Below are positions 43,175 to 49,845 of a stretch of 49,845 bases of DNA, piece by piece; within the stretch, counting starts at the first letter, position 1, and each line of letters begins with the position of its first letter. The stretch comes from a bacterium (GTDB lineage: Bacteria > Patescibacteriota > Minisyncoccia > Moranbacterales > UBA2206). The translations under genes were made by a program, and so were the position numbers. Under the pieces are notes generated by a model. It worked only from the letters and a program-made list of their open reading frames with translations. It ran no database searches and was not told the DNA's origin. The DNA is taken from the NCBI GenBank assembly GCA_021777675.1, contig JAJYDG010000003.1, positions 1-49,845 on the forward strand, in the 5' to 3' direction.

Positions 43175-43624
43175 ATGAATTTTATGTCTAAACCGATGCT
43201 AAAATTTAAAATAGTTACTCCTGAAAAAACTGTTTTTGAGGAGCAGGTGGAGCAAGCAACGCTAACGACTAGCAGTGGGCAAATTACTATTCTACCTAAT
43301 CATGTAAATTACATCGCAAGTCTCATTCCAGGAGAAGCGATGATTAAAAAAGATGGAAAGGAAATATATCTTTCTATTTCAGGGGGCTTTATTGAGTTTA
43401 ATTCTAATACCTTGACAGTTTTAGCTGATACGGCGGAAAGAGCTGATGAAATCGATCTTGTTCGAGCTGAGGAAGCAAGAAAGAAAGCGGAAGAATTAAA
43501 AAATAAAACTATTTCAATGAATGAAGAGGAATATGCTCGTGTGGCTGTGGCAATTCAAAAAGAATCTGCTAGAATTAGCGTGGCGAAAAAGCATCATACA
43601 AAAAGAGGTCTTAAAATGGAATAA
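43175..43624 (+). CDS. atpC: ATP synthase F1 subunit epsilon
   Basis: IVTPE, G.ITILPNH, SGGFIE, LAD.AE...EID. Confidence 0.95.
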   Translation: MNFMSKPMLKFKIVTPEKTVFEEQVEQATLTTSSGQITILPNHVNYIASLIPGEAMIKKDGKEIYLSISGGFIEFNSNTLTVLADTAERADEIDLVRAEEARKKAEELKNKTISMNEEEYARVAVAIQKESARISVAKKHHTKRGLKME

Positions 43625-43656
43625 AACAATATGATTTTTTGATAAATTGCAACGAC

Positions 43657-43719
43657 TTGACGAATCTTTCAAATTTTGTCAAAATGATGTTGTTAGCACT
43701 CAAATAGTTTGACTGCTAA
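43657..43719 (+). promoter_or_regulatory. sigma70 promoter plus CIRCE element (HrcA operator) upstream of groL
   Basis: TTGACG (43657-43662), 17 bp, CAAAAT; TTAGCACTC-N9-GACTGCTAA (43693-43719), one mismatch from the CIRCE consensus. Confidence 0.9.
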
Positions 43720-43748
43720 AATAATAATTTAATTTTTTTTTAAAAAAT

Positions 43749-45419
43749 ATGAGTAAACTTATTTTGTTTGATGAGGATGCAAGACAAAAAATTAGAGCCG
43801 GAATTGATAAAGTGGCTGATGCCGTTAAAACTACAATTGGTCCGAGAGGAAGAAATGTTATTTTGGATAAAGGTTTTGGATCGCCGGTTATTACTAATGA
43901 TGGAGTTTCTATTGCCAAGGAGATTGATTTGGAGGATAAGTTTGAAAATATTGGCGCCGATTTGATTAAGGAGGTTGCTAATAAAACTAATGATAACGCC
44001 GGAGATGGAACTACGACAGCAACAGTTTTAGCTCAGGCTATTGTGCGCGAAGGTTCAAAATTAGTGGCAACCGGAATGAATCCGATCAGTATTCGAAAAG
44101 GAATTGAAGATGCAAAAAACGATGTGGTTAAGGGTCTTAAAAAAATCGCTAAAGCCATTGGTTCCAAAGAGGAAATTGCTCAGGTGGCAACAATCTCGGC
44201 AGAAAGTGCGGAAATGGGAAAGATGATTTCCGAGGTGATTGCGCAGGTAGGAAAAGATGGTGTTATTACTGTTGAAGAATCACAAACTTTCGGCTTGGAA
44301 AAAGAAATTGTGGAGGGTATGACTTTTGATAAGGGTTATATCTCTCCCTATATGATCACTAACAGCGAGACGCTTAAAGCGGAACTGAAAGAAGTTAATA
44401 TTATTATTACAGACAAAAAAATTTCGGCCGTAGCGGAAATTTTGCCGATTTTGGAAAAAATTACTGCTAGTGGCAAAAAGGATATTGTAATTATTGCTGA
44501 AGATGTTGATGGCGAAGCTCTTACAACCTTGGTAGTGAATAAGTTGCGAGGCATTCTTAATGTTTTAGCAATTAAAGCGCCGGAATTTGGCGATAATAAG
44601 AAGGCGATGTTGGAAGATATTGCAATTATCACCGGTGGGCGAGTTATTTCCGAAGAAACGGGAATGAAGTTGGAAGATGCTGAATTAAATATGCTTGGAC
44701 AGGCGTCTAAAATAATTTCTACAAAAGACAATACAACGATTGTTGGAGGCAAAGGAAAAAAGAAGGAAATAGAAATGCGCATTGCTCAAATTAAAAAGCA
44801 AATGGCTATAAGCGAAAGCAAATGGGATAAAGAAAAGATGCAAAAAAGATTGGCGAAAATATCAGGCGGGGTAGCTGTGATTAAAGTTGGAGCGGCAACC
44901 GAAACCGAATTGACATATATGAAACATAAAATGGAAGATGCGCTTGCCGCTACGAGAGCAGCCTATGAAGAAGGAATTGTCGCCGGAGGTGGTGTAGCGC
45001 TTTTGCGAGTGTCCAACGAATTATTGCTGAAAGCGGAAGCGAGTAATAATCTTAGTGGAAATAATTTAGAACATTCTGTCGGTTATAAAATGTTATTAAG
45101 CGCCTTAATGGAACCGGCCAAGCAAATCGTGGCTAACGGCGGACAAAAAGATCCGGGGGTTGTTATTTATGAAATAATTAAAAACAAATCTGTTAATTAT
45201 GGCTTTGACGCAAGTTCTGGTGAGTATGTTTCGGATATGCTTAAGGCTGGGATTATCGATCCTATGAAAGTAACCAGAACGGCATTGGAAAATGCTGTAA
45301 GCATTTCTTCGATTTTTTTGACAACGCAAGTTGCCATTGCAGAAAAGCCGGAAGAAAAAGAGCATAATCATGGCGGATCGGGAATGCCGGGAATGGGTGG
45401 TATGGGAGGAATGATGTAG
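43749..45419 (+). CDS. groL: Chaperonin GroEL
   Basis: TIGPRGRNV, AGDGTTTATVL, GGM-repeat C-terminus. Confidence 0.98.
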   Translation: MSKLILFDEDARQKIRAGIDKVADAVKTTIGPRGRNVILDKGFGSPVITNDGVSIAKEIDLEDKFENIGADLIKEVANKTNDNAGDGTTTATVLAQAIVREGSKLVATGMNPISIRKGIEDAKNDVVKGLKKIAKAIGSKEEIAQVATISAESAEMGKMISEVIAQVGKDGVITVEESQTFGLEKEIVEGMTFDKGYISPYMITNSETLKAELKEVNIIITDKKISAVAEILPILEKITASGKKDIVIIAEDVDGEALTTLVVNKLRGILNVLAIKAPEFGDNKKAMLEDIAIITGGRVISEETGMKLEDAELNMLGQASKIISTKDNTTIVGGKGKKKEIEMRIAQIKKQMAISESKWDKEKMQKRLAKISGGVAVIKVGAATETELTYMKHKMEDALAATRAAYEEGIVAGGGVALLRVSNELLLKAEASNNLSGNNLEHSVGYKMLLSALMEPAKQIVANGGQKDPGVVIYEIIKNKSVNYGFDASSGEYVSDMLKAGIIDPMKVTRTALENAVSISSIFLTTQVAIAEKPEEKEHNHGGSGMPGMGGMGGMM

Positions 45420-45480
45420 AAAATTATTAAAAAAATAGTCTATTCGTTTTTTGATTTAAAAGAAATTGCAGGCGCTTTTA

Positions 45481-45509
45481 TTGACAAAATGCAGGATATT
45501 TGTTATTGT
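45481..45509 (+). promoter_or_regulatory. sigma70 promoter of the candidate ncRNA
   Basis: Perfect TTGACA (45481-45486), 17 bp, TATTGT (45504-45509) with extended TG. Confidence 0.65.
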
Positions 45510-45514
45510 TTAGC

Positions 45515-45626
45515 GACAAAGAATTTCTATCAGGCACGCTTCAATGCTATTGTTGTGAGCGATAGCGTAAATTCTCTTTCTCCTTTTTGGGGAGTTTCCG
45601 CATACCCCTGGTGGGGATTCTTTGTT
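45515..45626 (+). ncRNA. Candidate structured small RNA (~112 nt), possibly a minimal 6S/SsrS-like RNA
   Basis: 20-bp closing stem 45515-45534 / 45607-45626 with G-U pairs possible only on the + strand; two internal hairpins; flanked by a promoter and a terminator. Confidence 0.6.
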
Positions 45627-45634
45627 AATACATT

Positions 45635-45664
45635 GGCGATTTTTCGAATGAAAAATCGCTTTTT
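45635..45664 (+). terminator. Rho-independent terminator
   Basis: GGCGATTTTTC-GAAT-GAAAAATCGCT-TTTT. Confidence 0.75.
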
Positions 45665-45730
45665 GATTTTTTTGATTTTTTTTGATATAAATGTAATAAG
45701 CTTAACCTTAATAAAAATAAATTTAAAAAT

Positions 45731-46597
45731 ATGCGAATAAAAAAAGCAATTTTACCGGTGGCCGGATTTGGAACACGGTTTTTGCCTGCGACTAAAGCGC
45801 AACCGAAAGAAATGTTGCCCGTTGTTGACAAGCCGGTAGTGCAATATTTAGTTGAGGAAGCGGTTGCTTCAGGAATTGAAGAAATAATTTTTGTTACCGG
45901 AAGAGGAAAAAGAGCCATTGAAGACCATTTTGATATTTCTTTTGAGTTGGAAGAAACATTAGTAGAAAAAAATAAACATGATCTTCTAATGGCAGTACAG
46001 AAAATTCCCAATTTGGCAAAATTTTCTTATGTGAGACAACCGATGCCCTTGGGCGATGGACATGCTATTTTGCAGGCCAGACATATTGTTGGTGATGAGC
46101 CGGCATTGGTTATTTTTGGTGATTGTTTATATGATAGTGAAGTGCCATCAACAAAACAGCTGATGGAAACATTTGATCGCTATAATGATCCAGTAATCGG
46201 ATTAAGTCGTGTGGACATGAAGGATGTTTCCAAATTTGGTGTTTATGACGGAGTAAGGTTGGATGATAAAAATATTGAAGTAAAAAATGTTGTGGAAAAG
46301 CCCAAAATTGAAGATGCTAAATCGGATCTGGTGGCAGTGGGAAAATATATTATCACTCCCGAAGTGTTTGAAGTTCTTTCTAAAATAGAACATGGGAATT
46401 CCGGAGAGATTCGTCTAATTGATGCTTTTGAGATTATGCTTTCAAAAAATCGCCCGATTTATGGGAGAATATTAGATGGGGAGTGGTTGGACACTGGCGA
46501 TAAGTTCAATTTTCTCAAGGCTACAATTCATATCGGATTAAAACATCCTGAAGTTAAGGAAAAATTAAAGGAGTATTTAAGAAAATTAAAGATTTAA
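45731..46597 (+). CDS. galU: UTP-glucose-1-phosphate uridylyltransferase
   Basis: KAILPVAGFGTRFLPATKAQPKEMLPVVDKP, VVEKP. Confidence 0.97.
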   Translation: MRIKKAILPVAGFGTRFLPATKAQPKEMLPVVDKPVVQYLVEEAVASGIEEIIFVTGRGKRAIEDHFDISFELEETLVEKNKHDLLMAVQKIPNLAKFSYVRQPMPLGDGHAILQARHIVGDEPALVIFGDCLYDSEVPSTKQLMETFDRYNDPVIGLSRVDMKDVSKFGVYDGVRLDDKNIEVKNVVEKPKIEDAKSDLVAVGKYIITPEVFEVLSKIEHGNSGEIRLIDAFEIMLSKNRPIYGRILDGEWLDTGDKFNFLKATIHIGLKHPEVKEKLKEYLRKLKI

Positions 46598-46601
46598 AAA
46601 T

Positions 46602-47855
46602 ATGCAACACAATGTGCTTGCCAAAAAAGATGAAGCGGTTTTTCAAATTATTGCTCGTGAAGAAAAAAGACAAAAAGAAGAATTGGAATTGATTGCGTCG
46701 GAAAATTATGTTTCTTTGGCAGTCCTTGAAGCCTTAGGAACAGTATTAACAAATAAATACAGCGAAGGAACTGCAGGACATCGTTACTATGGAGGAAACC
46801 AAAATATTGATGAAATTGAAGCGCTGGCAATTGCGCGACTTAAAAAAATTTTTGGAGCGGAGCATGCTAATGTTCAACCTCTTTCCGGTTCTCCGGCTAA
46901 CGCCTCGGTGTATATGGCGTTTCTCAATCCGGGTGATAAAATTTTGGGTTTAAAACTTGATCATGGCGGACATCTTTCTCACGGACATCCGGTTAATTTT
47001 TCCGGCATGCTTTATAACTTTGTGCAATATGAAGTTGACTCGAAAACCGGACGAATAGATATGGAAGCTGTACGAAAATTGGCAAAAAAAGAAAAACCGA
47101 AAATGATCGTAGCGGGTTACAGTGCTTATTCGCGAGAAGTTGACTGGAAAGAATTTAAGAAAATCGCCGATGAAGTTGGCGCTTATACTTTTGCTGATAT
47201 AGCTCATACGGCCGGATTGATTGCGGCAAAACTATTGGAAAATCCCGTGCCTTATTTTGATGTTGTTTCGACTACAACGCATAAAACCTTGCGTGGTCCG
47301 CGCGGTGCGGTGATTATGTGCCAAGAAAAGTTTGCCAAGAAAATTGATCGAGCGGTTTTTCCCGGAATGCAAGGTGGACCGCATAATCATGTAACAGCGG
47401 CAAAGGCGGTAGCTTTCGGAGAGGTTTTAAGTAAAGACTTTAAGATTTATGCCAGACAGGTAATTAAAAATTCCAAAGTATTGGCTCAAGAATTTTTAAA
47501 AAAAGGTTATGAAATAGTTTCTGGTGGAACTGACAATCATTTGTTTGTTTTGGATTTACAAAATAAAAATATTGGCGGACATGATGCTGAAGTAATTTTG
47601 GAAAAAGTGGGAATTTCTGTTTCTAGATCTACTGTTCCCAATGATTTAAAGTCTCCTATGAATCCATCCGGAATACGAATTGGAACACCAGCCGCAACAA
47701 CTCGCGGAATGAAAGAAAAGGAAATGAAACAAATTGTTTTTTGGATTGACAAAGCTTTGATAAATATGAATAATAATGAAATTTTGGCGCAGATAAAAAA
47801 AGAAGTTAAAAAAATGTGTTTACAGTTTCCATTGCCGGAAATGAAAGAAGTTTAG
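46602..47855 (+). CDS. glyA: Serine hydroxymethyltransferase
   Basis: LIASEN, GGHLSHG, TTTHKTLRGPRG (PLP lysine), GIRIGTPA.TTRG. Confidence 0.98.
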   Translation: MQHNVLAKKDEAVFQIIAREEKRQKEELELIASENYVSLAVLEALGTVLTNKYSEGTAGHRYYGGNQNIDEIEALAIARLKKIFGAEHANVQPLSGSPANASVYMAFLNPGDKILGLKLDHGGHLSHGHPVNFSGMLYNFVQYEVDSKTGRIDMEAVRKLAKKEKPKMIVAGYSAYSREVDWKEFKKIADEVGAYTFADIAHTAGLIAAKLLENPVPYFDVVSTTTHKTLRGPRGAVIMCQEKFAKKIDRAVFPGMQGGPHNHVTAAKAVAFGEVLSKDFKIYARQVIKNSKVLAQEFLKKGYEIVSGGTDNHLFVLDLQNKNIGGHDAEVILEKVGISVSRSTVPNDLKSPMNPSGIRIGTPAATTRGMKEKEMKQIVFWIDKALINMNNNEILAQIKKEVKKMCLQFPLPEMKEV

Positions 47856-47927: not shown

Positions 47928-49845
47928 ATGGATTTTCCAAAAAATCAGAAAAAAGAAATTCAACTTTTTTTGTTTTTCCGTCGAGCCTTTCTTCTTCTTA
48001 TCATAATCTTTTTGGCAACCCTGATTGGAAACTTGCCGGAAAAATATCGCCTAGCCAATGCCTATCAAAACTGGCAAAATCAAAAAGCGCGTCAAACTTC
48101 CGGTGCGCAATTTTCCGCCTCGCTAAATGGCATGGCAATGGTGGCGGGGGAGAGTCAAACCAAAAATAACTCCCCTTTAGTATTGGCTGCCACCAATAGT
48201 ACCGTTTCCAACAATATTCAAGCCACCATCAATTCCAACACTAAAACCATCCAATTGGTAGGTACGCTTGCGGATGTTAATGGCAAGATGGTAAATGGCA
48301 CCTATTCCATCCGTTTTGCCATCTATGATACCGATCGAACCACAGTCGATCCCTATCCTTCCGATACCGACAAAAATCAAAGAATTTGGGAAGAAACACA
48401 AAATGTGGACATCAAAAGCGGAGTGTTCAATGTCGATTTGGGAAAAGTAAATAATTTGCCAACAACGCTTGCCAAAACAAACACTCAATTCTATTTGGCA
48501 ATGCGAGTGGAAAATGACAGTGAGATGGTGCCCCGAAAAAAAATCGCACCTTCTTTTTTCGCCCTTAATTCCGAAAACGCCATCACCCTAAACGGCAAAA
48601 AAATCGGCAACCAATCCGGTGATATTCCCATCCTCAATCAAAGCGGACAAATTGATATTCAAAATTTGCCTATTGGCACAAATAGCAATCAACTAGTAGT
48701 TGGCAACGATAAAAGATTTACTCTCAGTGCTAGCGGACAAAAATATTTCACCATTTCCGGGCAACAATTCAAATTGAATAAAATTGATTTAGGTTCCGAT
48801 ATTCAAGGCACACTGGGTGTCGCTCAAGGCGGAACGGGACTAACCAATTTTTCCCCAGGGGATTTATTGTATGCCTCGGGAACAGACACCTTATCCAAAC
48901 TGGCTATCGGCGCAGCTGGTCAAGTACTCGCCGTTAATGACAATGGAACATTAAATTGGAAAACACTAATCGGTAACGGAACCGAAACCGATCCTCGCTT
49001 GCCACTTGCAGGAACAAGCGGCAATCTTTTGCAATCCGATGGCAGCGTTTGGACCAGTTGGACACCAAACTATCTGACAAGCTACACCGAAACCGATCCG
49101 ACAATCTACGCTTGGGCGAAAAATTCCACCAAGCCAACCTATACCGCAACGGAAGTGGGCTTGGGAAATGTTACCAATGAAAGCAAGGTTACAATGTTTT
49201 CCAATCCCACTTTCACCGGCACAGTCTCCGGCATCACCGCCGCAATGGTCGGACTGGGCAATGTGCCCAATCTCACTTTTTCCGGATCCAATACCGGTGA
49301 TGAAACTCAAACTTCCATCAAAACCAAACTAGGTTTTGCCACTTCAACATCAGACGGCTACCTGACACAAGCAGATTGGAATATATTCAATGGAAAACAA
49401 AACAATTTAGGCTTCACACCTTACGATTCCACCAATCCGGCCGGATATATTTCAACTTACAATGAAACCGATCCGATTTTTCTCGCCAGTCAAGCTCACA
49501 ATATCACCGCCGCTCATCTTATAATCCTTAGCAACACCAGTGGCATTAACACGGGAGATAATGCGCCAAATACGCTCTACTCCGGCTTAGCGACAAGCAA
49601 ACAGGATGCCCTAAATGGCACCGGTTTTGTCAAAATCAGTGGTACAACCATAACCTATGACAACTCCAGTTATGTAACCGGAACACCGTGGACTGGTATG
49701 GGATATTTAACAAGCTATACCGAAACCGATCCTCGCTTGCCACTTGCAGGAACAAGCGGCAATCTTTTGCAATCCGATGGCAGCGTTTGGACCAGTTGGA
49801 CACCAAACTATCTGACAAGCTACACCGAAACCGATCCGACAATCT
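47928..49845 (+). CDS. Large exported phage-tail-fibre-like repeat protein (partial, at least 639 aa, runs off the window)
   Basis: Hand translation from ATG 47928 (MDFPKNQKKEIQLFLFFRRAFLLLIIIFLATLIG...) is stop-free to the window end; N-terminal TM; GTL.D.NG...NGTYSIRFAIYD...WEETQ.V.IKSGVFNV.LG domain; then LGVAQGGTG, ETDP x5, VGLGNV x2 motifs. Confidence 0.85.
   Translation, partial: MDFPKNQKKEIQLFLFFRRAFLLLIIIFLATLIGNLPEKYRLANAYQNWQNQKARQTSGAQFSASLNGMAMVAGESQTKNNSPLVLAATNSTVSNNIQATINSNTKTIQLVGTLADVNGKMVNGTYSIRFAIYDTDRTTVDPYPSDTDKNQRIWEETQNVDIKSGVFNVDLGKVNNLPTTLAKTNTQFYLAMRVENDSEMVPRKKIAPSFFALNSENAITLNGKKIGNQSGDIPILNQSGQIDIQNLPIGTNSNQLVVGNDKRFTLSASGQKYFTISGQQFKLNKIDLGSDIQGTLGVAQGGTGLTNFSPGDLLYASGTDTLSKLAIGAAGQVLAVNDNGTLNWKTLIGNGTETDPRLPLAGTSGNLLQSDGSVWTSWTPNYLTSYTETDPTIYAWAKNSTKPTYTATEVGLGNVTNESKVTMFSNPTFTGTVSGITAAMVGLGNVPNLTFSGSNTGDETQTSIKTKLGFATSTSDGYLTQADWNIFNGKQNNLGFTPYDSTNPAGYISTYNETDPIFLASQAHNITAAHLIILSNTSGINTGDNAPNTLYSGLATSKQDALNGTGFVKISGTTITYDNSSYVTGTPWTGMGYLTSYTETDPRLPLAGTSGNLLQSDGSVWTSWTPNYLTSYTETDPTI
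48981..49845 (+). repeat. Exact in-frame direct repeat of at least 127 bp (48981-49107 = 49719-49845), period 738 bp
   Basis: ACCGAAACCGATCCTCGCTTGCCACTTGCAGG...GATCCGACAATCT occurs twice; the second copy is cut by the window end. Confidence 0.95.

Follow-up and report, generated by a model that had tools for sequence, protein, structure and literature searches.

The candidate RNA locus belongs to a CPR-type bacterium with a tiny genome, where it is flanked by the chaperonin gene groL and the sugar-activation gene galU. The genome (G000) comprises 0.88 Mb (878,724 bases) on 36 contigs, with 35.7% G+C and a completeness of 95%. The window, i.e. the whole stretch of DNA that was analysed, is 49,845 nucleotides long, and all coordinates given without a contig name refer to it. 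The neighbouring genes and the parts of the element are compiled in Table 1. The start of groL follows a 124-nt gap after the ATP synthase epsilon gene, and no groES-sized ORF was seen at 43175-43749. Downstream of glyA, a 639-aa open-ended ORF (47928-49844) matched no Pfam family at E<=0.001. An 83-aa ORF at 45489-45740 was considered as a gene and discarded; its ATG reads ATA in G010, a sister species from the same genus.

Table 1. Genes and sequence features at the groL-galU locus
Feature	Coordinates	Strand	Remarks
ATP synthase beta and epsilon genes			upstream of groL
groL	43749-45419		stop at 45419
Putative RNA promoter	45481-45509	+	-35 TTGACA 45481-45486, 17-nt spacer, TG-extended -10 TATTGT 45504-45509
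P1 closing stem, 5' strand	45515-45534	+	from pair table
Interior, 72 nt	45535-45606	+	two predicted hairpins at a three-way junction, from folds
C/U-rich hairpin region, 29 nt, inside interior	45569-45597	+	identical in G010
P1 closing stem, 3' strand	45607-45626	+	from pair table
Linker, single-stranded, 8 nt	45627-45634	+	2/8 positions differ in G010
Intrinsic terminator	45635-45668	+	stem-loop 45635-45660 (11 pairs, 4-nt loop) and T-run
galU promoter	45663-45691	+	boundary feature outside the RNA; overlaps terminator T-run; TTGATT 45663-45668, 17 nt, TATAAA 45686-45691, with TG
galU	45731-46597	+	downstream of element, same strand
glyA	46602-47855		downstream of galU

A sequence-only reading of this DNA had described a self-contained RNA gene at this place, and every part that it named was found where it had been located. 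The motif TTGACA-17-TATTGT, read there as a promoter with a start at about 45515, is present with 10/12 matches and is complemented by the TG of an extended -10 element; the start site itself is deduced from the distance to the -10 hexamer. Likewise, the pair table bears out the claimed 20-bp stem with five G-U pairs. In P1, 20 consecutive pairs (15 Watson-Crick and 5 G-U) close a 112-nt domain (45515-45626), and all 5/5 non-Watson-Crick pairs are G-U on the + strand, with no A-C pair among them, as expected of an RNA transcribed from this strand. The intrinsic terminator that had been placed 8 nt past the stem could also be identified, as a hairpin followed by a T-run. The predicted transcript would extend from about 45515 to about 45665 and hence measure roughly 150 nt.

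The two inner hairpins named in that reading fared less well. Both can be drawn, but structures containing them score 3-5 kcal/mol above the MFE in both species, with -39.4 kcal/mol vs -44.7 kcal/mol in G000 and -37.6 kcal/mol vs -40.8 kcal/mol in G010. Because alternative folds lie within 5 kcal/mol, the predicted inner pairing is left ambiguous. In the MFE fold, the motif UUCUCC occupies the loop of the C/U-rich hairpin. When the element was folded inside its 316-nt context, the same element fold was recovered for both G000 and G010.

The stability of this fold clearly exceeds that of randomized sequences. On the + strand, 45510-45670 (161 nt) reached an MFE of -58.0 kcal/mol compared to -34.6 +/- 3.8 kcal/mol in dinucleotide shuffles (z -6.15), and 0/200 shuffles were as stable, while the minus strand of the same stretch gave a z of -2.92. 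Stems with 20 or more pairs (Watson-Crick and G-U) around at least 40 nt were counted over the whole genome on both strands, using 10 block-wise dinucleotide shuffles as control. Four such stems were found vs a mean of 0.8 expected; the other three are situated in coding or poly-A/T DNA, so that the stem of the element is the only intergenic one. Among 5,398 segments of 120 nt taken from spacers 90 nt or longer, the element ranked 14th after de-duplication. The higher-ranked segments include spacers of contigs C16, C19 and C34 with tRNA-like stretches, terminator hairpins and small genes, the latter overlooked by the crude gene calling; some others, lying in unannotated sequence, are presumably rRNA.

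For the promoter, the number of sites alone is not above chance, as a scan of the 500-nt region returned one site vs 1.7 +/- 1.3 in shuffles. Genome-wide, the pattern TTGA[CT][AT]-N14-16-TGnTAnnnT had 52 matches; 28 fall in DNA that counts as non-coding by crude gene calling, which makes up 10.7% of the genome. Given this five-fold enrichment, the motif predicts promoters of the organism fairly well. One match of this class falls in a long unannotated gap of contig C14, which we take to be an rRNA operon. Promoter-like sites of this extended -10 class, each followed by a long hairpin (26 and 19 pairs), were also seen in two spacers of another contig, G000:C19:63974-64099 (+) and G000:C19:4146-4218 (-), and both may harbour other small RNAs or leaders.

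The collection of homologues from related genomes, which the sequence-only reading had proposed, yielded one, in the sister species G010. There the element is 93% identical and again positioned between groL and galU. Constraint was thus estimated from this single relative, using third codon positions of groL (72.7% identity) and galU (72.6% identity) as the neutral reference. The spacer from the groL stop to the -35 element (45420-45480) is no better conserved, with 71% identity (18/63 positions differ), whereas identity rises to 91% in the promoter (45481-45514; 31/34 positions the same) and in the RNA (10/113 sites differ) and to 95% in linker plus terminator, with 45635-45664 free of differences. 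Altogether, promoter, RNA, linker and terminator contain 15/184 differences vs 231/844 at the groL and galU third positions (Fisher p 3e-9); the comparison of this block with the upstream spacer 45420-45480 gave p 1e-4. The element is therefore conserved above background, as would be expected of a candidate sRNA gene.

The -35 element TTGACA is unchanged in G010 and the -10 element is weaker there (TACTGT). The rise in conservation sets in about 10 nt upstream of the -35 element, as expected of an independent promoter and unlike a plain 3' UTR. In P1 of G010, three of five changes convert a G-U pair to A-U or G-C; a C-G pair is altered on both sides to give a U-U mismatch. Compensatory changes were seen at 0/39 predicted pairs, in a comparison of two sequences that are 91% alike. 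Among the substitutions in the interior, 4/5 hit positions that are unpaired in the G000 MFE fold (p ~0.1), and no inner fold was significantly favoured.

The distribution of the element is very narrow. BLAST searches over 41 relatives matched G010 only. A covariance model (R1) built from the two sequences found the element in 2/71 genomes of the family, i.e. in none beyond G000 and G010, and at E<=10 it added nothing new among 14 genomes of the genus (2/14). From these proportions, the element is dispensable for close relatives. A possible third carrier (G071, 20.7 bits) lacked one hairpin and had mismatched stem pairs and was treated as noise. Pattern scans gave 0 matches in JGI metagenome contigs and IMG/VR viral contigs, and in GTDB species genomes a single locus (L061), the position of which fits the contig of the sister species.

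Public sequencing runs were also inspected. The runs listed as containing the stretch included no RNA runs. Contigs from four DNA runs of one study contained the window's sequence and a G010-like variant, with no new variants in the RNA. Contigs of a variant strain (runs X2 and X4) break or diverge at the groL stop (45420-45422) and at the terminator, in keeping with the rapid evolution of the spacer when G000 and G010 are compared. The G010 assembly contains two groL genes (on contigs C65 and C76). Over the C-terminal 199 residues, they share 97% and 82% identity with the window's groL, which fits the stated 6% contamination or the presence of two strains in one bin.

The genomic arrangement is as restricted as the element. 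In the downstream DNA of 30/38 groL matches, galU came next after groL solely in G000 and G010. This coincidence would suit a non-functional leftover of a groL-galU rearrangement in which fold and motifs are fortuitous, as would the lack of homologues in the other genomes, contigs, phages and plasmids searched and the lack of covariation between the two sequences. We nevertheless regard such an origin as quite unlikely. Relative to neutral sites on either flank, substitutions in the block are three-fold rarer (p 3e-9), its G-U pairs are specific to one strand, and no other intergenic long-range stem of such size occurs in the genome. Moreover, when the 311-nt spacer was compared with the genome and with the retrieved loci by six-frame tblastn and blastn-short, only chance-level or T-rich matches were obtained, and the element accordingly shows no likeness to any gene fragment. 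The RNA gene proposed here looks very young.

The patchy distribution and the imperfect inverted repeats, separated by about 70 nt, would also allow the locus to be read as a miniature inverted-repeat mobile element (MITE) whose terminal inverted repeats are the 20-bp arms. This appears extremely unlikely, since the element is present as a single copy in G000 and occupies the identical site in both species. There are no copies in other genomes, blastn detected none in the phage and plasmid collections, and the mismatches of the arms are all G-U on one strand.

We then considered how the element relates to the transcription of its neighbours. Other members of the genus carry a strong intrinsic terminator 30-70 nt after groL. 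In G000 and G010, no convincing terminator was detected between the groL stop (45419) and 45635, either by scanning or by eye. Lacking a terminator of its own, groL should be transcribed through the element up to the terminator of the latter. The element should consequently be regarded as a candidate stand-alone gene and, as predicted from the sequence, also as a part of the groL 3' UTR.

This raises the alternative that the element acts purely in cis within the groL mRNA, as a 3' UTR stabiliser that shields the mRNA from 3' exonucleases or as an RNase III site, and that no separate sRNA function exists. The missing terminator before 45635 is in line with this explanation. A helix of 20 bp is long enough for RNase III cleavage, and RNase III is encoded in the genome (rnc, 141 bits). 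Against it, the conserved stretch starts about 10 nt ahead of the -35/-10 pair and not with the stem, and the 60 nt that separate the groL stop from the promoter diverge at the neutral rate. An element that merely stabilises a 3' UTR would have no use for a promoter, the terminator hairpin by itself already shields the 3' end, and the other 12 genomes of the genus do without the element. On balance, we judge a role confined to the groL mRNA unlikely.

On the downstream side, the sequence-only reading had offered an attenuator for galU-glyA. A 5' leader, attenuator or riboswitch of these genes would agree with the location of the element upstream on the same strand and with the succession of a structured region and a terminator. 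However, the galU promoter is located past this terminator, so the element is not a galU leader. This promoter consists of an invariant TTTGATTTTT, 17 nt and TG.TA, and is conserved in 7/7 genus genomes having galU, five of which have no element; in all seven it borders directly on the terminator of the respective upstream feature. Furthermore, MFE and centroid folds of the 316-nt context of both species, inspected by eye, showed no antiterminator-like pairing in competition with the terminator arms, and no riboswitch family matched. The attenuator was therefore rejected, and any leader function for galU-glyA is very improbable.

The family assignment was approached with covariance models. At E<=10, an Rfam scan of 44500-46500 listed 13 matches; every one fell far short of its gathering score, and none was to a riboswitch. 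With RF00013 included, as had been recommended, no Rfam family fits the element. Neither integron attC sites nor hammerhead cores were seen in the element by eye.

A divergent SRP (4.5S) RNA would have been conceivable because no SRP RNA was found elsewhere in G000. RF00169 and RF01854 matched neither the element region nor any other part of the genome. Searches of G000 for the Ffh M domain (PF02978) and for TIGR00959 gave no match, PF00448 (SRP54-type GTPase) gave nothing above the cut-off, and tblastn with a piece of the FtsY GTPase found nothing, while the positive controls SecY (364 bits), RNase P RNA and tmRNA were all detected. The SRP RNA reading was rejected because Ffh and FtsY are missing from the lineage. 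Bacterial Y RNA was considered as well. A long stem joining the 5' and 3' ends is a trait of Y RNAs, and the ends of the element form a long stem, too; no Ro60/TROVE protein (PF05731) is encoded in G000. The probability that the element is an SRP RNA or a Y RNA is thus practically negligible.

The absence of SRP components extends well beyond this genome. True matches to SRP54-type GTPases were found in none of 40 genomes of the order, the lone nominal match being a 27.5-bit P-loop stretch, in 0/151 genomes of the class and in 1/201 of the phylum genomes sampled. RF00169 was found in 0/41 genomes of the order. The absence of SRP subunits in many CPR bacteria is already known, as stated in part of a previous report (PMC8080830), and the breadth observed here is striking.

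The sequence-only reading had further suggested a miniaturised 6S-like RNA. Such an RNA would bind the RNA polymerase holoenzyme as a promoter decoy; P1 would serve as its closing stem and the junction strands as the bubble, topped by a short apical stem. RF00013 matched at E<=10 neither in 44500-46500 nor anywhere else in G000. In control searches this family was found in 7/14 named control genomes, in four of them above the cut-off. It was not detected in any of 40 genomes of the order (G000 and 39 relatives), and the niche is thus formally open; our literature search on SRP and 6S RNA in CPR bacteria yielded no paper on 6S RNA in this group. According to part of one study, truncated B. subtilis 6S-1 RNAs consisting only of the central bubble and two short arms maintain the 6S cycle in vitro (PMC8876501), for which reason we retain a small residual probability for a 6S-like function. 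Nevertheless, this explanation is very unlikely and the suggestion found no support. Besides the missing RF00013 match, the element comprises 112 nt vs about 180 nt, its best folds are three-way junctions and not a rod, and it occurs in 2/71 family genomes, whereas a housekeeping regulator of RNA polymerase should persist in relatives. There is a similarly slim chance that the element is one of many miniature decoys for RNA polymerase which evolve fast, are private to their lineages and cannot be linked by sequence homology. If this were true, a 112-nt junction RNA would replace the 180-nt 6S rod in ultra-small genomes.

Altogether, we consider it probable that 45481-45664 specifies a functional RNA element on the + strand. 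Our preferred explanation, to which we assign somewhat less than an even chance, is an orphan sRNA gene on this strand with a transcript of about 150 nt, restricted to two sister species. That the RNA is independently transcribed, as its promoter suggests, is likewise a tentative conclusion that falls just short of an even bet. The proposal of a new sRNA class made in the earlier reading survives in this form, given the element's own promoter and terminator, the absence of an Rfam match and its conservation above the neutral rate.

For this orphan sRNA gene, we propose that the extended -10 promoter at 45481-45509 would start transcription at about 45515. The primary transcript would then consist of the 112-nt junction domain, with its two hairpins held in the 20-bp helix, followed by the 8-nt linker and the Rho-independent terminator ending at about 45665, and the same element would be carried additionally in the 3' UTR of read-through groL mRNA. 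The 20-bp helix might provide stability or a processing site for RNase III. By analogy, our best guess is that the RNA would act in trans by base pairing, and the invariant C/U-rich hairpin might pair with purine-rich ribosome-binding regions. Taken by itself, such an anti-SD mechanism of the C/U loop is unlikely. When the interior was scanned for duplex energies against 771 crudely defined start regions, no target exceeded 20 shuffled queries; the minimum was -43.1 for the real query and -38.0 to -46.9 for the shuffled ones, in what is a crude use of the method on long pieces.

The family would be new and its kind already known, and the gene is credible yet unproven. A literature search covering SRP and 6S RNA in CPR bacteria and small RNAs or riboswitches in Saccharibacteria found nothing on regulatory sRNAs of such bacteria. 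If the element is a real sRNA, it would offer a concrete and testable case in uncultured bacteria with reduced genomes. It would also represent a very young RNA gene, born at a rearrangement junction and now terminating an essential chaperonin gene. With two species and no target indicated, its practical value is modest, and until a transcript has been demonstrated the interest will stay moderate to low.

In comparison with 6S RNA, the element shares a long closing helix formed by both ends, centrally placed unpaired strands and its organisation as a gene by itself. It differs in being a three-way junction of about 112 nt confined to two species, whereas 6S RNA is a rod of about 180 nt with a central bubble. 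The resemblance to classical intergenic sRNA genes is closer. Their hallmarks, as listed in part of a published overview (PMC9438474), are an own promoter, a Rho-independent terminator, a length of 100-200 nt, an intergenic location and conservation in relatives. Correspondingly, the element shows by sequence a sigma-70-type promoter, a U-tailed terminator, a predicted length of about 150 nt and an intergenic site, and it is conserved in the nearest relative; it differs from them in matching no family, in residing in a reduced CPR-type genome and in having no indicated target. The sections of the same overview that deal with mRNA 3' ends describe DapZ, MicL and MicX as sRNAs that originate there from their own promoter (PMC9438474). 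The promoter of the element lies 62 nt past the groL stop and not within the coding sequence, and there is no homology to these RNAs. Like them, insofar as these sections characterize them, the element shares the terminator of the upstream gene and could potentially be both part of a UTR and a primary transcript.
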